Positions 613 through 11,037 of a stretch of 64,000 nt of DNA are shown one piece after another. This DNA is from Oscillospiraceae bacterium (GTDB lineage: Bacteria; Bacillota; Clostridia; Oscillospirales; Acutalibacteraceae). Where the stretch lies: the NCBI GenBank assembly GCA_015065935.1, contig SVPI01000003.1, positions 30,563 through 94,562 on the forward strand, given 5' to 3'. The translations under genes were made by a program, and so were the position numbers. Positions within the stretch are counted from its first letter, which is position 1, and each line of letters starts with the position of its first letter. The notes beneath the pieces were generated by a model. It was not told where the DNA came from. It saw only the letters and a list, made by a program, of their open reading frames with translations, and made no database searches.

Positions 613-3069
613 TTGAAAAAGGATAAACTTTATCTTGTAGGCAACGCTCATTTAGACCCTGTTTGGCAGTGGCGCTGGCAGGAGGGAAGTATGGAGGCAA
701 AGGCCACCATTCGTTCGGCGCTTGATAGAATGAAGGAGTTCCCCGAATTTAGGTTTGTTTGCTCCTCTGCTTCGGTTTATAAATGGATAGAGGAATTCGC
801 CCCCGAAATGTTTGAAGAGGTAAGAGAGCGCATAAACGAGGGCAGATTTATAATTGTGGGCGGTTGGTTTGTTCAGCCCGATTGCAATATGCCCTCAGGC
901 GAGGCCTTTGCAAGACAAAGCCTTTATTCCCAGCGCTATTTTAAAGAAAACTTTGGCAAAACGGCAACGGTGGGTTATAATGTGGACAGCTTTGGCCACT
1001 GCGCAACCCTTCCGAAAATTTTAAAGAAAAGCGGAATGAATAGTTATATTTTTATGCGCCCCTCTCCGAAAGAAAAGAATATGGAAAGCGATGTTTTCGG
1101 TTGGATTTCCGATGACGGCTCAAAGGTTACAACATATAGAATTTTAGACCCCTATTGCGCCCAATTTGAAAATGTAGAGGCTTTAGAAGAGCGTGTTACT
1201 TATTTAGAGGAAAATTCTAAAGCCGATTTTAGCGCGCTTCCTCTTTTTTATGGCGTAGGCAACCACGGCGGCGGGCCGACCATAAGACATCTTGAGGTTT
1301 TGCGGGAATATGCGAAAAAACACCCCGAAAAGGAAATGATTTATTCCGATATATCAGATTTTTTTGAGGATATTTCTAAAGAAAACATTCCTCAGTATCA
1401 GGGAGATTTACAGCATCACGCCAGCGGCTGTTATTCGGCGGTGGGCAAAATTAAAAACGATGTTCGCCGTGCCGAAACAAGCCTTGTTGCCGCCGAAAGC
1501 TATAACGCCCTTGCGGCAAAGCTCTGCGGTAAGAAATATAAAAACGCCTCGTTTAAAGAGGGCTTTGAGAATGTGTGCTTTTGCCATTTTCACGATAGCC
1601 TTGATGGCTGCTCTATAAAAGAGGTTTATGATGATGCCGCTGATATGCTGGGCTTCGCTAAACACATTGCCGCAGTTGAGGAAAATAACGCTTTGCAGGC
1701 AATTTCCTGGAAAATAAACACAAAAGATAATACTTTGGGTCAGCCCGTTGTTGTTTTCAACCCCCATCCCTTTGATGCCGAGCAAATCGTTCAAATTAAT
1801 GGTCAGTTCAATGTGGTTAAGGACTCTGATGGAAACATTGTGCCTTCACAGCTGGTTTATTCCACCGTTAATGAGTGCTATAACCGCAAGGACACCATTT
1901 TCAGCGCAAGGGTTAAGGCGCTGGGTTATTCGGTTTATTATATAAGCGATGGCTTTACAGTAACCTGGAATAATCGCGCCGAGGAACCAAAGAGTGAAAA
2001 CAGTACCGTTTGCGCCTTTTTACCAAACAGCCTTGAAAGCGCTAATAATCACGACTGTGTTACCCTGGAAAATGAACTTTTAACGGTTAAATTTGAGCGC
2101 TATAGCGGTTATATTACCGAGATTTACGATAAGGAAAATGAGAAAAATCTTATAACTGACCGTGCCGCAGTGCCTATTGTTATTGATGAATATTATCACG
2201 ATGCCTGGAGCCACGATAAAAACTTTTTTACCGATGAAATGGCACGCTTTTCCGATGCTAAGGTAACGGTGCTTGAAAGCGGCCCTATAAGGGCAACCGT
2301 AAAGGTGGAAAGCCGTTATAATGGCTCTACCTTAACGCAGTATTTTTCCCTTGCTTCGGGCGGCAAAAAGTTAGTGGTAAGAGCCTATGTTAACTGGCAG
2401 GAGAAGCATAAAATGCTTAAAATAAAGTGGCCTATGGCGGTAGAAAATCCAAAAGCCTACTATGAAATTCCCTTTGGAATTATAGAGCGCCCTGCCGATG
2501 GCGAGGAGGAGCCTGGCATTAACTGGACTGCAGTTAAAGGCACAAACGGCGGCTTTGCTCTTGTAAATAATAACACCTACAGTTCAAGTGTTAAGGATGG
2601 TACGATTTATCACACCGTTGTTCGCAGCCCCATTTATGGCGACCACGGTGGACCGAGAACTGAGGAGAGCGATTTTTCGGGCCAGGGCAGATTTGATTTC
2701 AGCTATGAAATTATGCCTATAGGTGATAACTGGTCCTCGGTTATAAAGGAAGGAAAGCTTTTAAATAAGGGCTTTACCAATATAATGGACACCTGGCACG
2801 ATGGCGTTTTAGACTGCAAGCCTTATTCGGCAATGAGCACCGATTGCGAAAACATTTTTGTAAGTGCGGTTAAACGCAGCGAGGATAACACAGGCCTTAT
2901 CCTTCGCGTTTATGAGGCCGAGGGCAAGGAAACCAAATTTACTGTAAGCGGCGATTTGTTGCCCCTGCCGATTTGTGATACAATCACTCCCTGGTCGGTT
3001 GAAACCTATTATCTGAGTGACGGCGCCAAGAATTGGCAAAAGGTACTGTTTACCGAATATGCAGAATAA
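613..3069 (+). CDS. GH38 alpha-mannosidase
   Basis: 818 aa. The N-terminal GNAHLDPVWQWRW motif, the HFHD motif and the overall length fit class II (GH38) alpha-mannosidases. TTG start lies about 8 nt after AGGAGG. Confidence 0.85.
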   Translation: MKKDKLYLVGNAHLDPVWQWRWQEGSMEAKATIRSALDRMKEFPEFRFVCSSASVYKWIEEFAPEMFEEVRERINEGRFIIVGGWFVQPDCNMPSGEAFARQSLYSQRYFKENFGKTATVGYNVDSFGHCATLPKILKKSGMNSYIFMRPSPKEKNMESDVFGWISDDGSKVTTYRILDPYCAQFENVEALEERVTYLEENSKADFSALPLFYGVGNHGGGPTIRHLEVLREYAKKHPEKEMIYSDISDFFEDISKENIPQYQGDLQHHASGCYSAVGKIKNDVRRAETSLVAAESYNALAAKLCGKKYKNASFKEGFENVCFCHFHDSLDGCSIKEVYDDAADMLGFAKHIAAVEENNALQAISWKINTKDNTLGQPVVVFNPHPFDAEQIVQINGQFNVVKDSDGNIVPSQLVYSTVNECYNRKDTIFSARVKALGYSVYYISDGFTVTWNNRAEEPKSENSTVCAFLPNSLESANNHDCVTLENELLTVKFERYSGYITEIYDKENEKNLITDRAAVPIVIDEYYHDAWSHDKNFFTDEMARFSDAKVTVLESGPIRATVKVESRYNGSTLTQYFSLASGGKKLVVRAYVNWQEKHKMLKIKWPMAVENPKAYYEIPFGIIERPADGEEEPGINWTAVKGTNGGFALVNNNTYSSSVKDGTIYHTVVRSPIYGDHGGPRTEESDFSGQGRFDFSYEIMPIGDNWSSVIKEGKLLNKGFTNIMDTWHDGVLDCKPYSAMSTDCENIFVSAVKRSEDNTGLILRVYEAEGKETKFTVSGDLLPLPICDTITPWSVETYYLSDGAKNWQKVLFTEYAE

Positions 3070-3071
3070 TT

Positions 3072-3110
3072 AAAACACGGTAGAAACAATTTGTTTCTAC
3101 CGTGTTTTTT
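3072..3110. terminator. Bidirectional intrinsic terminator shared by the GH38 gene and the convergent 288-aa gene
   Basis: Perfect 16-bp stem aaaacacggtagaaac / gtttctaccgtgtttt with a short loop. A T-run follows on the plus strand and TTTTAATT follows on the minus strand. Confidence 0.8.
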
Positions 3111-3975
3111 AATGCAAAAATTTGTTGTTAGATTCATAAAGTTCATTTTTTGCTCTTGCAAATTCTTTTAAAAGTTTTTTAAAGGCAAGAAACGTTTCTT
3201 CAGAATAGTTTGGATAACAGATTGTTACTTGGCTTTTAGTCATGGCGATTATTTCGGGTGAAAATTTCGATAGTTCATAAAGACTTTTAATATCTTCTAT
3301 CATTTTATAATCTAAAGCCAAATCTCCATAATTTGTGAAAAAAGATAAGTGTTTTCTCTTCTTAAATTCGTTTTCATTAGCATCCGTTAATTTTATAAAA
3401 GGGATATAAAGAAAATGTTGATAGATTTCTTTTGTACTACGAACCAAATAAGCTAAACATTCTAAAATTTTTTGAACATCAACGCCTTCGGAAGTTTTGA
3501 AAATTGTTTTCAAGACATCGTTGCATGTTTCTAATCGCGACAAATTTTCTATTAAGTCGACCAATTCTTTGTAACTCGCTTTTTTTAAAAAATCTCGTAA
3601 TGGTTGAAAGTTATCGCCATCTAATATTTCTTTGTGTAATTTTAAAAATGTTGCAAACTCTTCTTTAAGCTGTTCATCAGTGTTTTCGTTAGGTGAATCA
3701 GTAATAGTTTCAAGGAGTAAATAATAATTATAATGGATTATTTTTAAAAAGCTACATTTATATATTTTTGATTCTGGATTAAAATCAAAAAAAATAGGCA
3801 AATTAGCGATTGAAAAAGTGTTTAAGAAAAAGTTGAAATCTTTACCAGCTAAATATGAAATAGCGGAAGGGTAATCTTCTTTTACTATATTTACAGGTTT
3901 AAGGTTTTCGGATTTTCTTATTTTATTAATTTGCTTTTTAAGATTAGTAAAATTCTGGTTAAAAAGGTTGTCCAT
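3109..3975 (-). CDS. Hypothetical protein, 288 aa, no recognisable motif (third gene of the AT-rich island)
   Basis: Long uninterrupted ORF in very AT-rich DNA. It lies 24 nt downstream of the XRE gene. The protein is Lys/Glu/Asn/Phe-rich and looks mostly helical. I recognise no catalytic or binding signature. Confidence 0.6.
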   Translation of the reverse strand: MDNLFNQNFTNLKKQINKIRKSENLKPVNIVKEDYPSAISYLAGKDFNFFLNTFSIANLPIFFDFNPESKIYKCSFLKIIHYNYYLLLETITDSPNENTDEQLKEEFATFLKLHKEILDGDNFQPLRDFLKKASYKELVDLIENLSRLETCNDVLKTIFKTSEGVDVQKILECLAYLVRSTKEIYQHFLYIPFIKLTDANENEFKKRKHLSFFTNYGDLALDYKMIEDIKSLYELSKFSPEIIAMTKSQVTICYPNYSEETFLAFKKLLKEFARAKNELYESNNKFLH

Positions 3976-3999
3976 TTTGTTACCTCGTATTATAGTCTG

Positions 4000-4215
4000 T
4001 TAATCTTCTTCAAAATAGAATAATTCTTCAAATCTGCAGTTAAGCGCAATGCATAGCAATGCTGCAAGATAAGCAGTAGGACAGAATTGCCCAGTTTCTA
4101 TAGAACTAATAGTGTTTTTAGAAGAACCAATTTTTTCAGCAAGTTGTGTTTGCGTTAAGCATGCTTGCTGCCGAAATTCTTTCAATTTGTTTTTTAATTT
4201 AAGGTGTGAATTCAT
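4000..4215 (-). CDS. XRE/Cro-family helix-turn-helix transcriptional regulator (about 71 aa)
   Basis: LTQTQLAEKIGSSKNTISSIETGQFCPTAYLAALLCIAL is a classic HTH_3 motif. I moved the start to the internal ATG at 4215 (MNSHLKLKN...), which overlaps the stop of the upstream gene as ATGA. Confidence 0.85.
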   Translation of the reverse strand: MNSHLKLKNKLKEFRQQACLTQTQLAEKIGSSKNTISSIETGQFCPTAYLAALLCIALNCRFEELFYFEED

Positions 4216-4535
4216 GGAAATACCACCTGCCCAACAAATACTAAAATAGCCAAAAGTGCAATAAGGCATTGAATTATTCCTATAACAATCATATATGTCT
4301 TTTTAATTTTAATGCCTTCGTAAAGGTGTTGAACACCCGATGCGGTCATTCCGACAGCAATAAGACCTGTATTAACCGAAGATTTAACAAAATATTCTAA
4401 TAAAAGTAGCGCTAAAGCAACAAGAAATGCTACAAGTGAGCCTAGTAAGCTGCTTCGCGCGGCAGATTCTTTTTCGTATTCTTTTCCAATATCTTTGTTA
4501 TTTTGAGCAGATTCTAAAATTTTTTCGTTTTCCAT
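4212..4535 (-). CDS. Small integral membrane protein (about 107 aa, 3 predicted TM helices)
   Basis: Hydrophobic stretches are LLGSLVAFLVALALLLLEYF, GLIAVGMTASGV and MIVIGIIQCLIALLAILVFVGQVV. ATG at 4535 is preceded by GGAAAGGTG. It is translationally coupled (ATGA) to the XRE gene. Confidence 0.7.
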   Translation of the reverse strand: MENEKILESAQNNKDIGKEYEKESAARSSLLGSLVAFLVALALLLLEYFVKSSVNTGLIAVGMTASGVQHLYEGIKIKKTYMIVIGIIQCLIALLAILVFVGQVVFP

Positions 4536-4546
4536 AGCGAACACCT

Positions 4547-4593
4547 TTCCAAGTTTTATGGGAATCTAATGACATTATATAATTCCAAGTTTT
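4547..4593 (-). promoter_or_regulatory. Two identical 11-nt direct repeats (AAAACTTGGAA on the minus strand), candidate operator sites
   Basis: ttccaagtttt occurs at 4547-4557 and again at 4583-4593, 36 bp apart. One copy sits inside the promoter spacer. The other abuts the RBS of the first island gene. Confidence 0.4.
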
Positions 4594-4602
4594 CTTTGTC
4601 AA
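4574..4602 (-). promoter_or_regulatory. Consensus sigma-A type promoter of the island operon
   Basis: The minus strand reads TTGACA, then a 17-nt spacer (aagaaaacttggaatta), then TATAAT. Both hexamers match the consensus exactly. The promoter is about 38 nt upstream of the ATG at 4535. Confidence 0.7.
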
Positions 4603-4622
4603 GAACTTTTTTAAAATTTTCT

Positions 4623-4670
4623 TAAAAATTAAAAGCACAACCAATAGATTTTTAATCTAGAGGTCGTGCT
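4623..4670 (-). terminator. Intrinsic terminator after the GH13 gene
   Basis: The minus strand forms agcacgacc...ggttgtgct with an inner tagatt/aatcta extension. It is followed by TTTTAATTTTT. Confidence 0.6.
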
Positions 4671-4692
4671 CTTTGTATGTTTAATAATAGTT

Positions 4693-6525
4693 TTATTTAA
4701 TCTTTCCGCTAAAAAGGCAAAAATCATTTGGGCCGATTTTGATTTTTTCATTCGACAAATTTTTGGGGATTTCAATTTCTCTTTCTGCGTCACTTGTGTT
4801 AACGCCTACAAAAACGAAATCCTTGTCCCGCTTTCTTAAATAAGCCATGCAGCCGTTTTCAAAATGAAGGGGGATAAACTCGCCATCCTTAAAAACGCTG
4901 TTTTCTCGGCGGAATTTGCCTAGTTTTTTATAAAACTCGGTGAGCGCTTTATCTCCGTTTTCCCAATCAAAAAAGCCGCGGCAGAACGGGTCGCCAAAGC
5001 CTTCAGTGCCGATTTCATCGCCATAATAAAGAGAGGGCACACCGGGCAGGGTATACTGCAAAACTGCGGCAAGCTTAAGCCTTTTTTTGCCGATTTCCTG
5101 CTGTTCCTTTGAAAGTCTTTGCTCCGCCTGCCAATTTCGGTCGGCTAAAACCTGCCCCTCAAAGCCCAGGCGGGTTAGAATTCGGGCGGTGTCGTGGGTG
5201 CCGATGTGGTTCATAAGGGTGTGAAGGGAGCAGGGGGGATAGTTTTCAATTATATCAAGAATACTCGAAATAAAAGCCTCTCCGTTACCGCCCATAACAA
5301 AATCAACAATAGAATTTGCAAAGGGGTAATTCATAACCGAATCAAGCTGTTTGCCCCTTAAAAAGCGGCGGCGGGCGTTGTAGCTTACCTTGTTTGTGGC
5401 ATCCTCCCAAACTTCGCCCAGTAAAAAGGCATCCTTTTTCTCCTGCTTTATGGCAGTTCTCACGCTATCAAGGAATACATCGGGCAGTTCATCGGCAACA
5501 TCAAGGCGCCAGCCATCGGCACCAAGCCTTAACCAGTGCCGTATAACGCCGTTTTTGCTCGTTATAAATTCGAGAAAATTCTCATTTTCCTCCACCGTTT
5601 CGGGCAATGTAGGAACACCCCACCAGGCCTCATAATCATCGGGCCAATTTTTAAATTTAAACCAGCCGTGATATTTTGAATTTTCACTGTTGTAGGCGCC
5701 GATTCCGCTATAACGGTTTTTCTTGTTAAAATAGATGCTGTCATCCCCCGTGTGGGAGAAAACGCCGTCTAAAATAATATGAATGCCCTGCTTTTTAGCA
5801 TCTTTGCAAAGCCTTATAAAATCCTTTTCATCCCCTAAAAGAGGGTCAATTTTCATATAATCCGCCGTATTGTAACGGTGGTTTGAGTGTGCCTCAAAAA
5901 TAGGATTTAAATAAATGCAGTTAACCCCAAGGCCTTTAAGGTAGGGAAGTTTTAACCGTACACCCTCAAGGTCACCGCAGTAATAATCATTGCCGAGGAA
6001 ATCGTTTGTGCTGAAATCCTGTGTAAATGTGGGCTGTTTTTTCTTATCCTTAACAATAAATCGGTCGCTTGGAACATTCTTTTTTGCCTTTCCCGAATCA
6101 TAAAAGCGGTCGGGGAAAATCTGATAGATAATGCCGCCCTTAATCCAGTCAGGGGTGGTAAAATCACTGTCATAAACGGTTAACTGCCAGGAGGCGCCAA
6201 TGGGCTCAAGGTTAACAATGCCAACGCCGTTTACCTTGGTAACAAAATAATTCCCAAAGGGGCTTGTGTAGAAAAAGCGATACCAGTAAAGCCCGCCGGA
6301 AGGGGAAATTTCGGTATCATAAAAGATATAATCCTCAAGGCTTTCTCTTTGTGTGAGGGGGATTTTTTGTTCATCCTCGCCATCCTTTGATAAAAGCAAA
6401 AAGGCCTCATCTGCCTTTGCATCCTTATGCAGAAGTAGCCGTAAAGTCAGGCTTTCGCCTGATTTTACGGCTGAGAATTTAGACTTATAAAGACTTTTTC
6501 TTGAATCAAAAGGATAATATTGCAT
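4693..6525 (-). CDS. GH13 alpha-glucosidase/neopullulanase-like enzyme
   Basis: All four GH13 regions are present: DGVFSHTG, GADGWRLDVADELP, LLGEVWEDA and MNHIGTHDTARI. It has an N-terminal beta-domain and lies directly downstream of glgP. Confidence 0.85.
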   Translation of the reverse strand: MQYYPFDSRKSLYKSKFSAVKSGESLTLRLLLHKDAKADEAFLLLSKDGEDEQKIPLTQRESLEDYIFYDTEISPSGGLYWYRFFYTSPFGNYFVTKVNGVGIVNLEPIGASWQLTVYDSDFTTPDWIKGGIIYQIFPDRFYDSGKAKKNVPSDRFIVKDKKKQPTFTQDFSTNDFLGNDYYCGDLEGVRLKLPYLKGLGVNCIYLNPIFEAHSNHRYNTADYMKIDPLLGDEKDFIRLCKDAKKQGIHIILDGVFSHTGDDSIYFNKKNRYSGIGAYNSENSKYHGWFKFKNWPDDYEAWWGVPTLPETVEENENFLEFITSKNGVIRHWLRLGADGWRLDVADELPDVFLDSVRTAIKQEKKDAFLLGEVWEDATNKVSYNARRRFLRGKQLDSVMNYPFANSIVDFVMGGNGEAFISSILDIIENYPPCSLHTLMNHIGTHDTARILTRLGFEGQVLADRNWQAEQRLSKEQQEIGKKRLKLAAVLQYTLPGVPSLYYGDEIGTEGFGDPFCRGFFDWENGDKALTEFYKKLGKFRRENSVFKDGEFIPLHFENGCMAYLRKRDKDFVFVGVNTSDAEREIEIPKNLSNEKIKIGPNDFCLFSGKIK

Positions 6526-6527
6526 AA

Positions 6528-8930
6528 CTATTTTAAAGGTGTTGTGTGCCAGATATCGCGGGCGTAATCCTCAATGGAACGGTCGGCGGCAAAAATGCCC
6601 GACTCGGCAATGTTAACAAGGGACATCTTGTTCCATTTTAATGTGTCGGCATAGGTTTCGCCGGCGATTTTCTGTGCATTGCAGTAGTCCTTGAAATCGG
6701 CAGCGGCCATATAATGGTCAATATTTGTTAAAATGTGGTGAATGCTTTCAAAGGATTGACCGTTAATACCCTTGCCAATGAAATCAAGGGCGGCCTTTAA
6801 TTCCTCATTATTGTTATAGTAGTTAGAGGGGTGGTAGCCGTTCTTGCGAAGGCGGTTAACCTCAGGTGTGTGCATACCGAAGATAAAGATGTTATCATCC
6901 CCAACAGCAGAGTGAATTTCAACGTTTGCGCCATCCTCAGTACCAATGGTAACTGCGCCGTTCATCATAAATTTCATATTTCCCGTTCCGCTGGCCTCGG
7001 TAGAAGCCAAAGAAATCTGCTCGCTGATTTCGGCCGCAGGAATCATAAGCTCAGCCAGAGTTACTCTGTAATCCTCAAGGAAAACAATTTTAAGCTTATC
7101 GCGAACAGCGGGGTCGTTTTCAATAACGCGGCTTAAATTATAAATCATATGAATGATTTGCTTTGCAAGGAGATATCCGGGTGCCGCTTTTGCACCGAAA
7201 ATATAGGTTTTGGGTGTAAAGGGAGCATTGGGGTTTTCCTTAATAAATAAATATTCGCTGATAATGTGCAGGGCATTAAGGTGCTGGCGCTTATACTCGT
7301 GGAGGCGCTTAACCTGCATATCAAAAATAGAATCGGGATTTAAAATAATGCCGTTTTTATCGCTGAGATAGTTTGCAAGGCGCTCCTTGTTTTGGCGCTT
7401 GATTTTGGCAAGCTTTTTAAGAACTGCCGCATCATCCTCAAATTTTCTAAGCTCTGAAAGCTTTGCGGCGTCCATAACAAAACCGTCGCCGATAAGCTCG
7501 GTAATAAATTTCGAAAGCTCAGGGTTTGCCTGGCAAAGCCAACGCCTGTGTGCAATGCCATTGGTAACGTTTGTAAACTTCTCGGGGGTTAAACGATAAT
7601 AATCGCTAAACAGCGAATCCTTTAAAATGTCGCTGTGAAGCTTGGAAACGCCGTTAACACAGTGGCAAGCGGCAACGCAAAGATTTGCCATTCTGACAAC
7701 GCCGCCCTGAATAATATGGGTGCGTTCAGCAAGACCCCAATCATCGGTTTCGGCTAAAACCTGCGCATAATAGCGGCGGTCAATTTCCTTAACAATTTGG
7801 TAAATTCTGGGCAATCTGTCCTTGAATAAGCCTTCGGGCCAGCACTCAAGCGCCTCGCTCATAACGGTGTGGTTGGTGTAGGCAATGGTCTTTGTAACAA
7901 TGCCCCAGGCCTTATCCCATTCATAGCCGCACTCATCAAGCAAAAATCTCATAAGCTCGGGAACGCCGAGCGCCGGGTGGGTGTCGTTAACGTGAATTGC
8001 AACCTTGTCGGCAAGGTTATCAAGGGTGCCGTAGGTACGAAGGTGGCGGTTTAAAATATCCTGAATAGATGCGCTTACAAGGAAATACTGCTGGCGAAGG
8101 CGAAGTGATTTACCCTCAATGTGATTATCCTCGGGGTAGAGCACTTTACTGATTGCCTCAGCCGTTGCCTTTGCCTCCATCGCGCGAACATAGTCGCCCT
8201 GGTTAAAGGCAGACATATTTATATCCTGGCATTCCGCGGTCCAAAGGCGCAAAGCATTAACGGTTTTACCATCCTTACCTGCAACCATAAGGTCATAAGG
8301 CATGGCGCGAACGGTGCTGTAGTTTTCGTGCTTAATGCTGTGGTAGTTGCCATCCCAGGTTTCGTTAACATAGCCATCAAAATGAACATCAACTGCGCTT
8401 GCAGGGCGGGGCTCAAGCCACACACTGCCACCAGGAAGCCAGAAATCGGGCATTTCGGTCTGCCAGCCTTCAATAAGCTTTTGGCGGAAAATACCGAATT
8501 CATACTTAATGCAGTAGCCCATTGCAGGGTAACCGCCGGTTGAAAGACCATCTAGGAAGCAGGCGGCAAGGCGACCAAGACCTCCGTTTCCGAGACCTGC
8601 ATCGGGCTCTAATTCATAAAGGCTATCAAGCTTAACCTTAAACTTAGAAAGTGCCTTTGCCATTGTCTTTTCAAGGTCCATATTAAAAAGGTTATTTTTA
8701 AGGGATCTACCCATTAAGAATTCCATACTAAGGTAGTAAACGGTTTTTGCCTGCTTTTCGGCGGTTTCCTTTTTAAAGGCAGTGCGCCTTTGGCGCATAA
8801 TGTCAAGAAGAACCAGCACTGTTGCCTTATAAAAAAGGTCATCAGAGGCTTCCTCGGGCATAACGCCGAAATTATGGGAAAGCTTTTTCTCAATTAAATT
8901 TGCAAGAGCAGTAGAGGTATATTTTTCCAT
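6528..8930 (-). CDS. glgP: Glycogen/maltodextrin phosphorylase (GT35)
   Basis: EASGTGNMKFMMNGA is the pyridoxal-phosphate lysine motif. About 800 aa. I moved the start to ATG at 8930 (MEKYTST...), which has AAGGATGG upstream. Confidence 0.9.
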   Translation of the reverse strand: MEKYTSTALANLIEKKLSHNFGVMPEEASDDLFYKATVLVLLDIMRQRRTAFKKETAEKQAKTVYYLSMEFLMGRSLKNNLFNMDLEKTMAKALSKFKVKLDSLYELEPDAGLGNGGLGRLAACFLDGLSTGGYPAMGYCIKYEFGIFRQKLIEGWQTEMPDFWLPGGSVWLEPRPASAVDVHFDGYVNETWDGNYHSIKHENYSTVRAMPYDLMVAGKDGKTVNALRLWTAECQDINMSAFNQGDYVRAMEAKATAEAISKVLYPEDNHIEGKSLRLRQQYFLVSASIQDILNRHLRTYGTLDNLADKVAIHVNDTHPALGVPELMRFLLDECGYEWDKAWGIVTKTIAYTNHTVMSEALECWPEGLFKDRLPRIYQIVKEIDRRYYAQVLAETDDWGLAERTHIIQGGVVRMANLCVAACHCVNGVSKLHSDILKDSLFSDYYRLTPEKFTNVTNGIAHRRWLCQANPELSKFITELIGDGFVMDAAKLSELRKFEDDAAVLKKLAKIKRQNKERLANYLSDKNGIILNPDSIFDMQVKRLHEYKRQHLNALHIISEYLFIKENPNAPFTPKTYIFGAKAAPGYLLAKQIIHMIYNLSRVIENDPAVRDKLKIVFLEDYRVTLAELMIPAAEISEQISLASTEASGTGNMKFMMNGAVTIGTEDGANVEIHSAVGDDNIFIFGMHTPEVNRLRKNGYHPSNYYNNNEELKAALDFIGKGINGQSFESIHHILTNIDHYMAAADFKDYCNAQKIAGETYADTLKWNKMSLVNIAESGIFAADRSIEDYARDIWHTTPLK

Positions 8931-9001
8931 TTGGTACCATCCTTGTAAAAAAATAAAGTTAAACAATATTATTATCTACTTTATATGATAACTTATTCCA
9001 C

Positions 9002-9035
9002 AAAAAAATTCAAGCATATTATAATATGCTTGAAT
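9002..9035 (-). terminator. Intrinsic terminator downstream of cls and the small ORF
   Basis: A perfect 28-nt palindrome, attcaagcatattataatatgcttgaat, is followed on the minus strand by TTTTTTT. Confidence 0.75.
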
Positions 9036-9142
9036 AGGGTATTTTTTATTCAATTTGTACAAAAAACATTCAAAAACAAAGAATTTCACTAAAACGATTT
9101 GTGTTTTTCCATAAAAAATACAAAAATTCAGCACCGTGTAAA

Positions 9143-9301
9143 CTATTCAGCCTCTACAGTGGTAATTTCGCAAGGGAGATATTCTTTTTTAATCAGTTCC
9201 TTTTTCTTTAAAAGGCTGTCAATAATATAAACAGCGCCTGCGATAGCGGCAACCACTGCCAAAATGATTAAAACAACGTATAAAAACTTTTTAAGCTTCA
9301 T
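9143..9301 (-). CDS. Small single-pass membrane protein (52 aa)
   Basis: Below the ORF-track size cut-off. My translation is MKLKKFLYVVLIILAVVAAIAGAVYIIDSLLKKKELIKKEYLPCEITTVEAE. AAAGAGGTG lies 7 nt upstream of the ATG. The terminator at 9002-9035 follows. Confidence 0.5.
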   Translation of the reverse strand: MKLKKFLYVVLIILAVVAAIAGAVYIIDSLLKKKELIKKEYLPCEITTVEAE

Positions 9302-9353
9302 TTTAAACACCTCTTTAAGTTATTATATATTAAAAATTTTTTCTTGTCAATGT

Positions 9354-10880
9354 TTACATAAAGGGTGAAAAAATATGGAGAACCATCTGTTTTATTTTTT
9401 GAAAAAGAGGTCGGTTTTTCCATTCTTTTTCGGTTATTTCCTTTGATTTTTCAAACAGCTCATTGAACTGATTTTTAATCGCTGAATTGCAGCAGGAACC
9501 GCTTTCCCACACGCCGCACTCAAAGTGAAAATAAAAGCTGCGATAGTCCATATTTACGCTGCCTATGGTGGCAATTTTATCATCGCTTAAAAACACCTTT
9601 GAATGAATGAAACCGGGGGTATATTCGTAAATTTTGACCCCCGATGAGAGCAGTTCGCCGTAGCTTTGCTGCGTTACGGGATGAACGTACCATTTATCGG
9701 GGTGAGAGGGCGTTATAATCCTTACATCAATTCCCGATTTTGCCGCTAATTTCAGGGCACTTTTCATATTGGAATCAAGGATTAAATAGGGGGACATAAT
9801 ATAAACATATTTTTGCGCTGTATTTATTATTTGCATATAAATTCCCTCAGCGGGATTTTTGCCGTTGAGCGGGTCATCGCAATAGGGCAAAATGTGCCCA
9901 TCATCTTCAAAGGATACGCTCGCGAAATAATTTTCGATTTTTGTTTTTTCGCCCGTTGTGAACTCCCACATTGAGCAAAACATAGCGACAAAGCTATCGG
10001 TTGCTCTTCCTTTAAGCATAATGCCGCAGTCCTGCCAGTGGCCGAAGCGAGGAAGTCGGTTTATATATTCATCGCCAATGTTTATACCGCCTGTGAAGGT
10101 GGTAATGCCGTCAATGATAACAATTTTTCTGTGATTTCGGTTGTTCATAAAAATATCAACCGAGGGTCTTAACGGATTAAAAACAGAAACCTTTATTCCT
10201 GAATTTTTCAGCTCTTTAACGAAGTTCTTTCCCTGCCTTCCTATTGAACCGAAATCATCAAAAATAATGCGCACCTCTACACCGCTTTTGGCCTTTTGGA
10301 CTAAAATTTCTTTGATTGAATCCCACATAAAGCCATCGGCCAGAATAAAAAATTCAATAAAAATATATTTTTCGGCACTTTTTAGTTCAAACAGCAGATG
10401 GTCAAAAAAACTTTCTCCGCTTTCAAGATATTCGGTTTTTGTTCCCGAATAAATGGGTAAACCCGTTTCGCGGCTTAAGTAATCCGCTTGGCGAGCGTGG
10501 AAAAGGTCGCTGCTGAAAAGCTTTTCTTTCTCACTATCATCCGTTTTAAGCTTTGAAAAATATTCTTTTTCGCAGTTAGCCATTTTTCTTTTCAAATGCG
10601 GGAAAACTCGGCCGCCTCCGAAAAGCAAAAAAACGCATATTCCAAGGATAGGGAAGAGCAAAATGAGAACAACCCAGGCCATTTTGTAGCTGGGATTTCC
10701 TTCGCGACTGATAATGTAAATTGAAAAAACAGCGGCAATAACGCCGCAAAGCTCATAAAACCACAATGCTGATTTCCATAAGTAAATCAGAGGAAAAACA
10801 ATAAGGCAGAATTGAACTAGAATTAAGATTGCGATTATAATTGATTTAAGTGGTATTGGCAGTCCTCTTTTTTTCAACAT
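9354..10880 (-). CDS. cls: Cardiolipin synthase
   Basis: Two HKD motifs (HRKIVIIDG and HSKVFLSDD) and two N-terminal TM helices. I moved the start to ATG at 10880 (MLKKRGLPI...), which follows GGAGTG. Confidence 0.9.
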   Translation of the reverse strand: MLKKRGLPIPLKSIIIAILILVQFCLIVFPLIYLWKSALWFYELCGVIAAVFSIYIISREGNPSYKMAWVVLILLFPILGICVFLLFGGGRVFPHLKRKMANCEKEYFSKLKTDDSEKEKLFSSDLFHARQADYLSRETGLPIYSGTKTEYLESGESFFDHLLFELKSAEKYIFIEFFILADGFMWDSIKEILVQKAKSGVEVRIIFDDFGSIGRQGKNFVKELKNSGIKVSVFNPLRPSVDIFMNNRNHRKIVIIDGITTFTGGINIGDEYINRLPRFGHWQDCGIMLKGRATDSFVAMFCSMWEFTTGEKTKIENYFASVSFEDDGHILPYCDDPLNGKNPAEGIYMQIINTAQKYVYIMSPYLILDSNMKSALKLAAKSGIDVRIITPSHPDKWYVHPVTQQSYGELLSSGVKIYEYTPGFIHSKVFLSDDKIATIGSVNMDYRSFYFHFECGVWESGSCCNSAIKNQFNELFEKSKEITEKEWKNRPLFQKIKQMVLHIFSPFM

Positions 10881-11037
10881 TTTCACACTCCATATTGAAA
10901 TTTTAGCACCAAAAATGCTATGATTCAAATTTTTGCGAGATTTGTAACAAAAAATTTACATTTTTTTGTGGTATAACAGGAGAGTTTATGTTATACTGTA
11001 TAAGTAATATTTTATCTACTGCTCGGAGGGATAGTTT

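Follow-up and report, generated by a model that had tools for sequence, protein, structure and literature searches.

The stretch of DNA analysed here, referred to as the window, comprises 64,000 nucleotides (nt) of contig SVPI01000003.1 from an Oscillospiraceae bacterium (assembly GCA_015065935.1). Near its start, a cassette of three minus-strand genes is flanked by the gene of a GH38 alpha-mannosidase on one side and by the genes of an alpha-amylase-family (GH13) enzyme and glycogen phosphorylase (GlgP) on the other. In the cassette head, a consensus promoter and two AAAACTTGGAA repeats precede the gene of a DUF6442 membrane protein with three predicted helices and the coupled gene of a regulator of the XRE family, 71 amino acids (aa) in length. 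The cargo gene of an orphan protein (orf288) follows. The ATG of the XRE gene overlaps the TGA of the upstream DUF6442 gene (ATGA), which indicates translational coupling, and a Shine-Dalgarno sequence precedes each of the three genes. An overview of the cassette features, together with the third genes of related loci, is given in Table 1.

Table 1 Features of the cassette in the window and third genes of the DUF6442-XRE cassettes
Feature	Locus	Position (nt)	Strand	Characteristics
Bidirectional intrinsic terminator	window	3072..3108	both	perfect 18-bp inverted repeat with T-runs on both sides; z = -8.9 and -7.7
Accessory cassette, entire (1,582-1,583 bp)	window	3108..4690	-	segment missing from empty-site alleles
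orf288 cargo gene, 288 aa	window	3109..3975	-	no known family; one relative
XRE-family (HTH_3) DNA-binding protein, 71 aa	window	4000..4215	-	Pfam HTH_3
DUF6442 membrane protein, 107 aa, starts MENEK	window	4212..4535	-	Pfam PF20040; start ATG matches homologues
AAAACTTGGAA repeat, proximal copy	window	4547..4557	-	direct repeat; extends into the DUF6442 ribosome-binding site; candidate XRE operator
sigma-70-type promoter, TTGACA, 17 nt, TATAAT	window	4574..4602	-	12/12 consensus positions
AAAACTTGGAA repeat, second copy	window	4583..4593	-	in promoter spacer between -35 and -10; candidate XRE operator
Degenerate palindrome TTTTAAGAAAATTTTAAAA	window	4609..4627	-	just upstream of -35; from alignment with sister loci
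Hairpin followed by U-rich tract, cassette-borne	window	4631..4673	-	folding energy -22.2 kcal/mol, z = -5.7
Third gene	window, L084			288/295-aa orphan
Third gene	L112-114, L119, L121			fusions of CoiA_N, a CoiA nuclease-like domain (CoiA_nuc) and UvrD helicase, 965-1006 aa
Third gene	L111, L115, L120, L122, partial L117			shorter CoiA-like proteins, 301-405 aa
Third gene	L125			PLD/NgoFVII-like nuclease
Third gene	L116			protein with weak IrrE-like HExxH motif
Third gene	L126-128			133-aa unknown

The cassette is sharply set apart by its base composition. The segment has a G+C content of 0.294, compared with 0.419 for the whole window. In 300-nt steps across 3001-4800, G+C ranges from 0.26 to 0.36, and the flanking genes reach 0.40-0.53. 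The three cassette genes have a G+C content of 0.269, 0.329 and 0.346. Their G+C at third codon positions (GC3) is 0.221, 0.236 and 0.231, while the 52 other open reading frames (ORFs) of at least 120 aa in the window have a mean of 0.417 (standard deviation (sd) 0.037, minimum 0.356), which places the cassette genes about 5 sd below this set. Since GC3 is depressed in all three genes, the AT-richness is not just an effect of amino-acid composition. A preliminary description of this DNA had reported an AT-rich island at 3109-4692 that encodes a 107-aa protein, an ATGA-coupled 71-aa XRE protein and a 288-aa orphan and that carries no recombinase. Windowed G+C and GC3 confirm the island, the gene content is borne out, no recombinase is found among the ORFs, and the coordinates lie within 1-2 nt of the natural indel boundaries.

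These boundaries are given by empty-site alleles. In contigs from four metagenome runs (X9, X10, X11 and X14), position 3107/3108 is joined directly to position 4691, with a joint that is ambiguous by two to three T residues. A 4,028-bp contig from goat gut (X9), for instance, matches 1500-3107 and then 4691-6238 and is ~98% identical to the window. Close relatives thus do have the empty site between the GH38 and GH13 genes that the preliminary description had envisaged. The identical island is located in the same context in three other assemblies. A third allele is found in X7 at 3106/4697, where the flanks are joined via a 26-nt filler, AATTTTAAATTGTATTTAACCTAAAA, at a depth of 33, much above that of the island-bearing strain in this run.

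The island was not found in any of the 80 species-level relatives covered by a genome scan with GH13, and a metagenome scan with GH38 returned relatives at ≤68% identity only. Going by the GH13 relatives, the bacterium is an uncultured Clostridium of the Acutalibacteraceae type whose habitat is the gut of ruminants and other animals. In the closest species-level genomes (L004 and L005, ~91% DNA identity), synteny breaks exactly at 4691 and other genes are encoded there; both also lack the GH13-GH38 adjacency and are therefore not clean empty sites. In L004, synteny stops exactly at the GH13 stop codon, so that the same intergenic point is also a rearrangement junction. In place of GH38, this genome (11830-17804) encodes a 423-aa membrane protein with multiple helices that is unannotated and appears to be a permease, as well as proteins of 207 and 452 aa.

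A diverged copy of the cassette is present in the more distant relative L084, whose GH38 and GH13 proteins share 84% and 76% aa identity with those of the window. The same three genes occupy the same site there, at a G+C content of 0.26-0.36. The XRE protein is 85-86% identical to that of the window, DUF6442 65% and the orf288 homologue 44-46%. The island and its flanks are both saturated for synonymous differences (proportion of synonymous differences pS 0.64-0.73), and the ratio of non-synonymous to synonymous change (dN/dS) is 0.04 for XRE, 0.18 for DUF6442, 0.27 for orf288, 0.06 for GH38 and 0.09 for GH13. Presence and absence of the cassette do not track relatedness, which points to an old polymorphism that was repeatedly lost or exchanged. 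Judged by these alignments, the cassette is a long-lived polymorphism and not a recent strain-specific acquisition. Its movement would most simply be explained by recombination in the conserved flanks. Among the features of genomic islets, deviating synonymous sites and an intact empty site are present; the ORF list contains no recombinase or mobility gene, and the repeat analysis revealed no terminal direct or inverted repeats.

The earlier view of a horizontally acquired accessory module therefore holds in part. The cassette is autonomous and accessory, its synonymous sites are anomalous and its gene pair recurs on mobile elements (see below), whereas a recent origin is at odds with the diverged copy in L084. 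The same genes at this locus in all relatives, with matching codon usage, had been named as a pattern that would speak against an accessory module. This pattern is seen in part: L084 carries the trio, equally AT-rich, but the four runs with empty sites lack it. In a bovine gut run (X8), the island is present in a relative whose flanks share ~86-93% identity with the window; identity is 92% in the middle of orf288 and 98.4-99.7% in the XRE/DUF6442 part. This pattern could have arisen if lineages exchanged the cassette head or if the sample contained mixed strains.

The transcription signals that had been described for the island (a promoter at 4574-4602, a GH13 terminator and a shared terminator at 3072-3108) are all present. 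The promoter is the only perfect consensus match in the region. Including its spacer, the promoter 29-mer TTGACAAAGAAAACTTGGAATTnTAyAAT is found exactly in nine loci with differing third genes. The 9-mer AAAACTTGG occurs only twice in the 64-kb window, both times in the cassette, and the proximal AAAACTTGGAA copy is nearly invariant in an alignment of six loci. At the position of the palindrome upstream of -35, the sister loci have TTCCAAnAAAATTTGGAA, and both half-sites lack their G/C pairs in the window. One metatranscriptome contig matches exactly over 4249-4394, within the DUF6442 gene, and is taken as weak evidence that the genes are real and maintained.

On the minus strand, the hairpin at 4631-4673 precedes UUUUAAUUUUU. 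A simple terminator scan overlooked it because of its long loop. The hairpin is the GH13 terminator in this strain, insulates the cassette promoter and is missing in the empty-site alleles. The bidirectional terminator at the other end stops transcription of GH38 and, in this strain, of orf288. In the empty-site strains, the GH13 stop codon lies directly against this terminator, which probably ends GH13 there as well. The cassette thus brings along a promoter, three genes and a terminator for GH13, and relies on the resident terminator to end its last gene. Rfam yielded sub-threshold terminator-like matches only; a match to RT-6 (E = 0.71) was taken as chance.

A stretch of 34-37 bp upstream of and including the -35 element (4595-4631, minus strand, TAATTTTTAAGAAAATTTTAAAAAAGTTCTTGACAAA) is found once in the window. 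With 0-3 mismatches, it recurs in many gut metagenomes, on several unrelated contigs of each, at a depth far above that of the island (43 vs ~2-3 in X7). Some of its flanks, inspected by eye, resemble other TTGACA...TATAAT promoters with different spacers. It may represent a promoter or UP-element module in wide use.

The first gene of the head encodes a member of the DUF6442 family (PF20040; 35.2 bits, gathering cut-off 25 bits, E = 1.6e-8, residues 1-104 of 107), and a precomputed match to the same family is available for all but two of the listed homologues. Hydropathy analysis indicates a polar N-terminus of 28 residues, followed by hydrophobic segments at about residues 29-50, 56-71 and 82-104. 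The N-terminus probably lies inside and the C-terminus outside, a topology consistent with the lysine-rich KIKK loop between segments 2 and 3. E47, Y48, N55, Y72-E73-G74 and G86 are invariant in 20 homologues; except for G86, these are invariant polar residues within hydrophobic parts of the protein. Among the papers searched, none mentions DUF6442.

The second gene encodes a protein that consists of little beyond a helix-turn-helix (HTH) domain and is clearly assigned to HTH_3 (PF01381; E = 1.7e-13, 50.8 bits, cut-off 23). A phmmer search against the PDB returned a PbsX-family regulator (9k3w) and CylR2 (2xiu and 1utx) as the nearest solved structures, with full-length alignment. The protein is 85-92% identical across ten related loci, while third-codon identity is just 43-61% and thus saturated, so the conservation of protein and operator is selective and not the result of a recent spread. 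Searches of PADLOC yielded only generic HTH matches (HTH_VI, the N-terminus of RmrA, CapH and controller proteins) and no partner genes; those of PHROGs yielded only generic repressor matches. A retron, to which the HTH_VI match had pointed, was rejected because no reverse transcriptase is encoded nearby.

The third gene, orf288, starts 24 nt after the XRE stop codon, with a GAGGT ribosome-binding site 8 nt 5' of its ATG. Its product has a calculated mass of 34 kDa and a pI of 6.3, is soluble and has no hydrophobic segment; models of low confidence suggest a mostly helical protein. A word-indexed search of 5.8 billion clusters retrieved nothing beyond the query protein. In an exhaustive HMMER search of 1.84 billion representative proteins, a single relative was found, the 295-aa protein of L084 (P0008), which is conserved end to end (44-46% identity). 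Profile searches with the two-sequence alignment revealed nothing further, and no significant match was found among PDB sequences. The protein is thus an orphan, as first described, with no match to a housekeeping family in the libraries searched. An open frame of 288 codons in DNA of 27% G+C has a chance of ~1e-11, assuming a stop frequency of ~0.085 per codon. This value, together with the end-to-end conservation in L084 under purifying selection, shows that orf288 is a real gene. Among the five genes compared with L084, it has the highest dN/dS and evolves fast.

To place the cassette in a broader context, DUF6442 homologues of 51-70% identity were traced to their contigs, all of which derive from metagenomes or from one metagenome-assembled genome. 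They include 13 distinct loci whose DUF6442 proteins are 52-70% identical to that of the window. Wherever downstream sequence is present, the next gene encodes an XRE protein 85-92% identical to that of the window. The subfamily is therefore tight, and it is so far found only in metagenome assemblies and genomes obtained from them. The XRE gene is followed after 3-100 nt (mostly <25 nt) by a third gene, and this gene varies between loci (Table 1). The clearest case is provided by L120 (444-1339) and L121 (1-897), which are 97.9% identical over 897 bp, up to and ending exactly at the XRE stop codon. Past this codon, L120 encodes a 350-aa CoiA-nuclease protein and L121 a 1006-aa CoiA/UvrD fusion; homology resumes after the cargo. 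Divergence at the XRE stop and subsequent re-convergence identify the third position as an exchangeable slot. That the cassette is an accessory unit with a swappable slot can accordingly be stated with high confidence.

The genomic neighborhood of the sibling loci includes McrBC, a Macro/NADAR/ADP-ribosylglycohydrolase protein, HEPN/MNT pairs and integrases. One locus (L112, 915-11069) resembles a defence island, with a HipA_C-like protein, a 720-aa ADP-ribosylglycohydrolase/Macro/NADAR protein and McrB/McrC. At two loci, the XRE gene is uncalled in the source annotation (L111, 6324-6545; L116, 6234-6457); the frame starts there at a valine codon, read as GTG. Automated annotation probably undercounts the DUF6442-XRE pair.

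Outside this subfamily, more distant pairs, with XRE proteins 59-68% identical to that of the window, are found on mobile elements. In the temperate C. difficile phage phiSemix9P1 (KX905163; L124, 1447-3207), the pair corresponds to genes phi51 and phi50. Further pairs are located on plasmids of B. thuringiensis (pHS18-2), B. mycoides and C. botulinum, in integrative elements of Agathobacter rectalis and Vescimonas fastidiosa, in the latter beside ErmB, and on IMG/VR contigs. On pHS18-2, the C. botulinum plasmids and the two integrative elements, the pair is annotated as 'DUF6442 family protein' and 'helix-turn-helix transcriptional regulator'. Where checked, in phiSemix9P1 and the IMG/VR contigs, the promoter layout with AAAACTTGG in the spacer is retained. 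The pair in phiSemix9P1 lies ~1 kb from a phage-borne CRISPR array, and a second regulator, of the 'y4mF family', is encoded nearby. A tblastn search of phage and plasmid collections with the DUF6442 protein of the window returned nothing, the subfamily being too diverged; it was the XRE query that reached the wider family. An IMG/VR pattern scan likewise revealed no relative, and the exact promoter of the subfamily is also absent from IMG/VR. With generic repressor matches in PHROGs and no phage-collection match for the DUF6442 protein, the cassette itself does not present as a prophage.

Taken together, the cassette is best explained as a strain-variable accessory operon that belongs to a cassette family of gut Clostridia with a conserved head and exchangeable cargo, an overall explanation that we hold with moderate confidence. 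According to this model, the XRE protein would bind the AAAACTTGG repeats, which overlap the promoter spacer and the 5' leader, and would repress its own operon. Expression of the cargo would be set by this switch. Such autorepression is fairly probable. DUF6442 would act as a membrane partner that modulates the repressor on an envelope-associated cue. In the cytolysin system of E. faecalis, repression is exerted by CylR2, which binds in the promoter region; induction requires CylR1, a protein with three predicted membrane helices, and the two proteins may form a two-component system without phosphorelay (review PMC3709268). By analogy, DUF6442 may be a CylR1-like modulator, a tentative assignment. 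The cargo of the window, a fast-evolving, soluble and probably helical orphan, would most likely serve in conflicts with phages or other mobile DNA. This role is favoured because nuclease-related domains are found in nine of the 13 sibling cargos surveyed, from loci picked by size of contig and not as a statistical sample, and because the anti-phage function of a protein with a CoiA domain was validated in E. coli (PMC9519451). Of the possible cargo functions, conflict with phages or plasmids is the single most likely, at what is still a low probability. A defence role is plausible by association with the sibling cassettes that carry nuclease or helicase cargo next to McrBC, HEPN/MNT or integrase genes; for orf288 itself, that of a defence effector is a doubtful assignment. 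An unlikely extension of the model is that DUF6442 and XRE form an undescribed membrane-coupled switch that operates as CylR1/CylR2 do, although with an unrelated membrane protein, and that gates swappable anti-phage or anti-plasmid effectors in gut Clostridia, with orf288 as founder of a new effector family without a recognisable fold.

Several observations weigh against this interpretation. The locus in the window has no defence genes nearby, its neighbors being glycan-catabolism genes, and the cargo counts come from the selective survey noted above. The phage-defence role proposed in the preliminary description gained no support from PADLOC-DB v2, in which no model matches the 288-aa protein or DUF6442. 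The former also has no significant match in Pfam, NCBIfam or PHROGs, hhalign comparisons with three other cargo proteins gave probabilities <1%, and AlphaFold2 models with one or two sequences reached a predicted local distance difference test (pLDDT) score of 43 and 45, respectively, and provide no usable structure. DUF6442 was rejected as a homologue of CylR1 (hhalign with a 20-sequence profile, probability 0.5%), so that the analogy is only architectural for the membrane partner. In the wider family, either no third gene follows or it encodes DUF3784, a small membrane protein; the pair is thus able to exist by itself and is not tied to nucleases. Finally, degeneration is seen in the window in the distal palindrome and, apparently, in the left half of the proximal inverted repeat; regulation of the cassette may be partly decayed there.

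A rival reading is a toxin-antitoxin or addiction system, in which DUF6442 would be a holin-like membrane toxin, the XRE protein its antitoxin and autorepressor, and the third gene a passenger; such a system would stabilise elements or abort infection. The two genes are small and translationally coupled, and they are common on plasmids, integrative elements and phages. The pair lacks a tightly linked third gene in phiSemix9P1 and apparently likewise on the B. thuringiensis plasmid, for which the PLSDB gene table is perhaps incomplete. The phage DUF6442 protein is marginally similar to a holin family (E = 0.046), and the XRE protein has sub-threshold matches to the HipB, MqsA and HigA antitoxin models. 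These matches and that to Y4mF, however, reach 13-32 bits where the cut-offs are 48-79, and are due to the generic HTH fold. A type II system would be expected to include a recognisable toxin family, but none is matched in Pfam, NCBIfam or PADLOC, and the 71-aa XRE protein has no extra domain for neutralising a toxin. The invariant polar residues of DUF6442 and its conserved cytoplasmic head of 28 residues are better suited to a specific partner or sensor, and neither the tight operon linkage nor the precise swapping of the third gene would be explained. We regard a toxin-antitoxin function as quite unlikely.

A prophage remnant, another candidate of the preliminary description, is contradicted by the exact boundaries of the cassette and by its intact genes under purifying selection. 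As a decaying prophage or integrative element, the cassette would represent three leftover, functionless genes of a larger element between GH38 and GH13. This would be in line with its AT-richness, the relatives of the pair in phages and integrative elements, the degenerate distal operator and the fast evolution of orf288. However, what the empty-site alleles lack is exactly the 1,583-bp cassette, with no other element genes, attachment-site repeats or scars. All three ORFs, including an open frame far too long for chance, are intact in two lineages at saturated synonymous divergence (dN/dS 0.04-0.27), the promoter is perfect, and the ribosome-binding sites and the terminator are intact. Such a remnant is therefore improbable. 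A native regulator that senses a carbohydrate-related cue and controls GH13/GlgP or GH38 is barely credible: the cassette does lie between GH38 and GH13-GlgP in the window, in L084 and in the ~90%-identical relative in X8, but same-species strains without it keep both flanking operons, the same head (XRE 85-92% identical, same operators) is found in unrelated contexts, and AAAACTTGG is nowhere else in the 64-kb window, so that no other local promoter carries the motif.

The accessory operon with a conserved head is of interest beyond this locus. Pairs of a small XRE regulator and a tiny membrane protein abound on Gram-positive mobile elements. To our knowledge, almost none of these pairs has been studied; CylR1/CylR2 is the one examined case. 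The cassette contains a pair of this known kind, here at the head of a swappable cargo slot. The DUF6442-XRE family offers a strongly conserved promoter and operator and a repressor whose identity between hosts is 85-92%. It also offers cargo swaps that arose in nature and wild strains that carry or lack the cassette. If the head does gate nuclease-type cargo, it would be a compact, portable regulatory module, a genomic flag for new conflict genes in uncultured gut anaerobes and a means of finding functions for orphans, the orf288 protein among them. If it does not, the annotation is still useful, as the AT-rich patch would be an ordinary strain-variable accessory operon that lies outside the glycan-utilisation locus.

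Two further observations concern the neighborhood of the cassette. A second AT-rich patch, located at 8850-9450 in the intergenic region upstream of the GlgP-GH13 operon, has a G+C content of 0.27-0.33 in 300-nt steps. A 524-aa protein is encoded at 9354-10928 (G+C 0.389, rather low) that has two PLD domains and is cardiolipin synthase-like by its domains. The segment 9355-10940 is missing in L004 and L005 and present at 53-65% identity in more distant relatives; it is a second indel between close relatives.

Among known systems, CylR1/CylR2 of the E. faecalis cytolysin most closely resembles the cassette head. The XRE protein is homologous to CylR2 (2xiu, E = 6.5e-7; 1utx, E = 1.8e-5), its residues 8-69 being aligned to residues 3-64 of the 66-residue chain. 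The gene order is also the same: on the E. faecalis plasmid, cylR1 (94 aa, 1210-1494) abuts cylR2 (66 aa, 1495-1695), so that a membrane-protein gene is located upstream of the regulator in both cases. The membrane proteins differ, as DUF6442 has a 28-residue cytoplasmic N-terminal head, whereas CylR1 starts with a hydrophobic stretch and matches no Pfam family. Unlike the cytolysin locus, the cassette has no lanthipeptide genes beside it and lacks a divergent target promoter. Regulation appears to extend to the operon of the pair itself and the downstream cargo, and the candidate operator is the repeated AAAACTTGG motif.

A similar arrangement is known from controller (C) proteins of restriction-modification systems. 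Those of the C.PvuII type are small XRE-type HTH proteins that are encoded upstream of, and co-transcribed with, a nuclease, and their operator repeats are located at their own promoter. The XRE protein has weak matches to the PADLOC model 'Control_protein' (E = 8e-4 to 0.035). In contrast to these systems, the cassette has no methyltransferase, contains an additional membrane protein, and in the window carries a cargo in which no nuclease can be recognised.

In prophages, satellites and defence islands, conserved genes are known to flank slots or hotspots of variable cargo. The cassette family shares with these slots a sharply bounded, exchangeable cargo that is enriched in nucleases and helicases. 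The conserved flank, however, is a two-gene regulatory head instead of phage structural or integration genes, and in the window it is the whole three-gene unit that forms the indel. Also close are the wider PF20040 pairs on Bacillota mobile elements: the protein of the window passes the Pfam threshold and forms the same two-gene pair, whereas the operon of its subfamily includes a third gene that is highly variable and mostly of the nuclease type.

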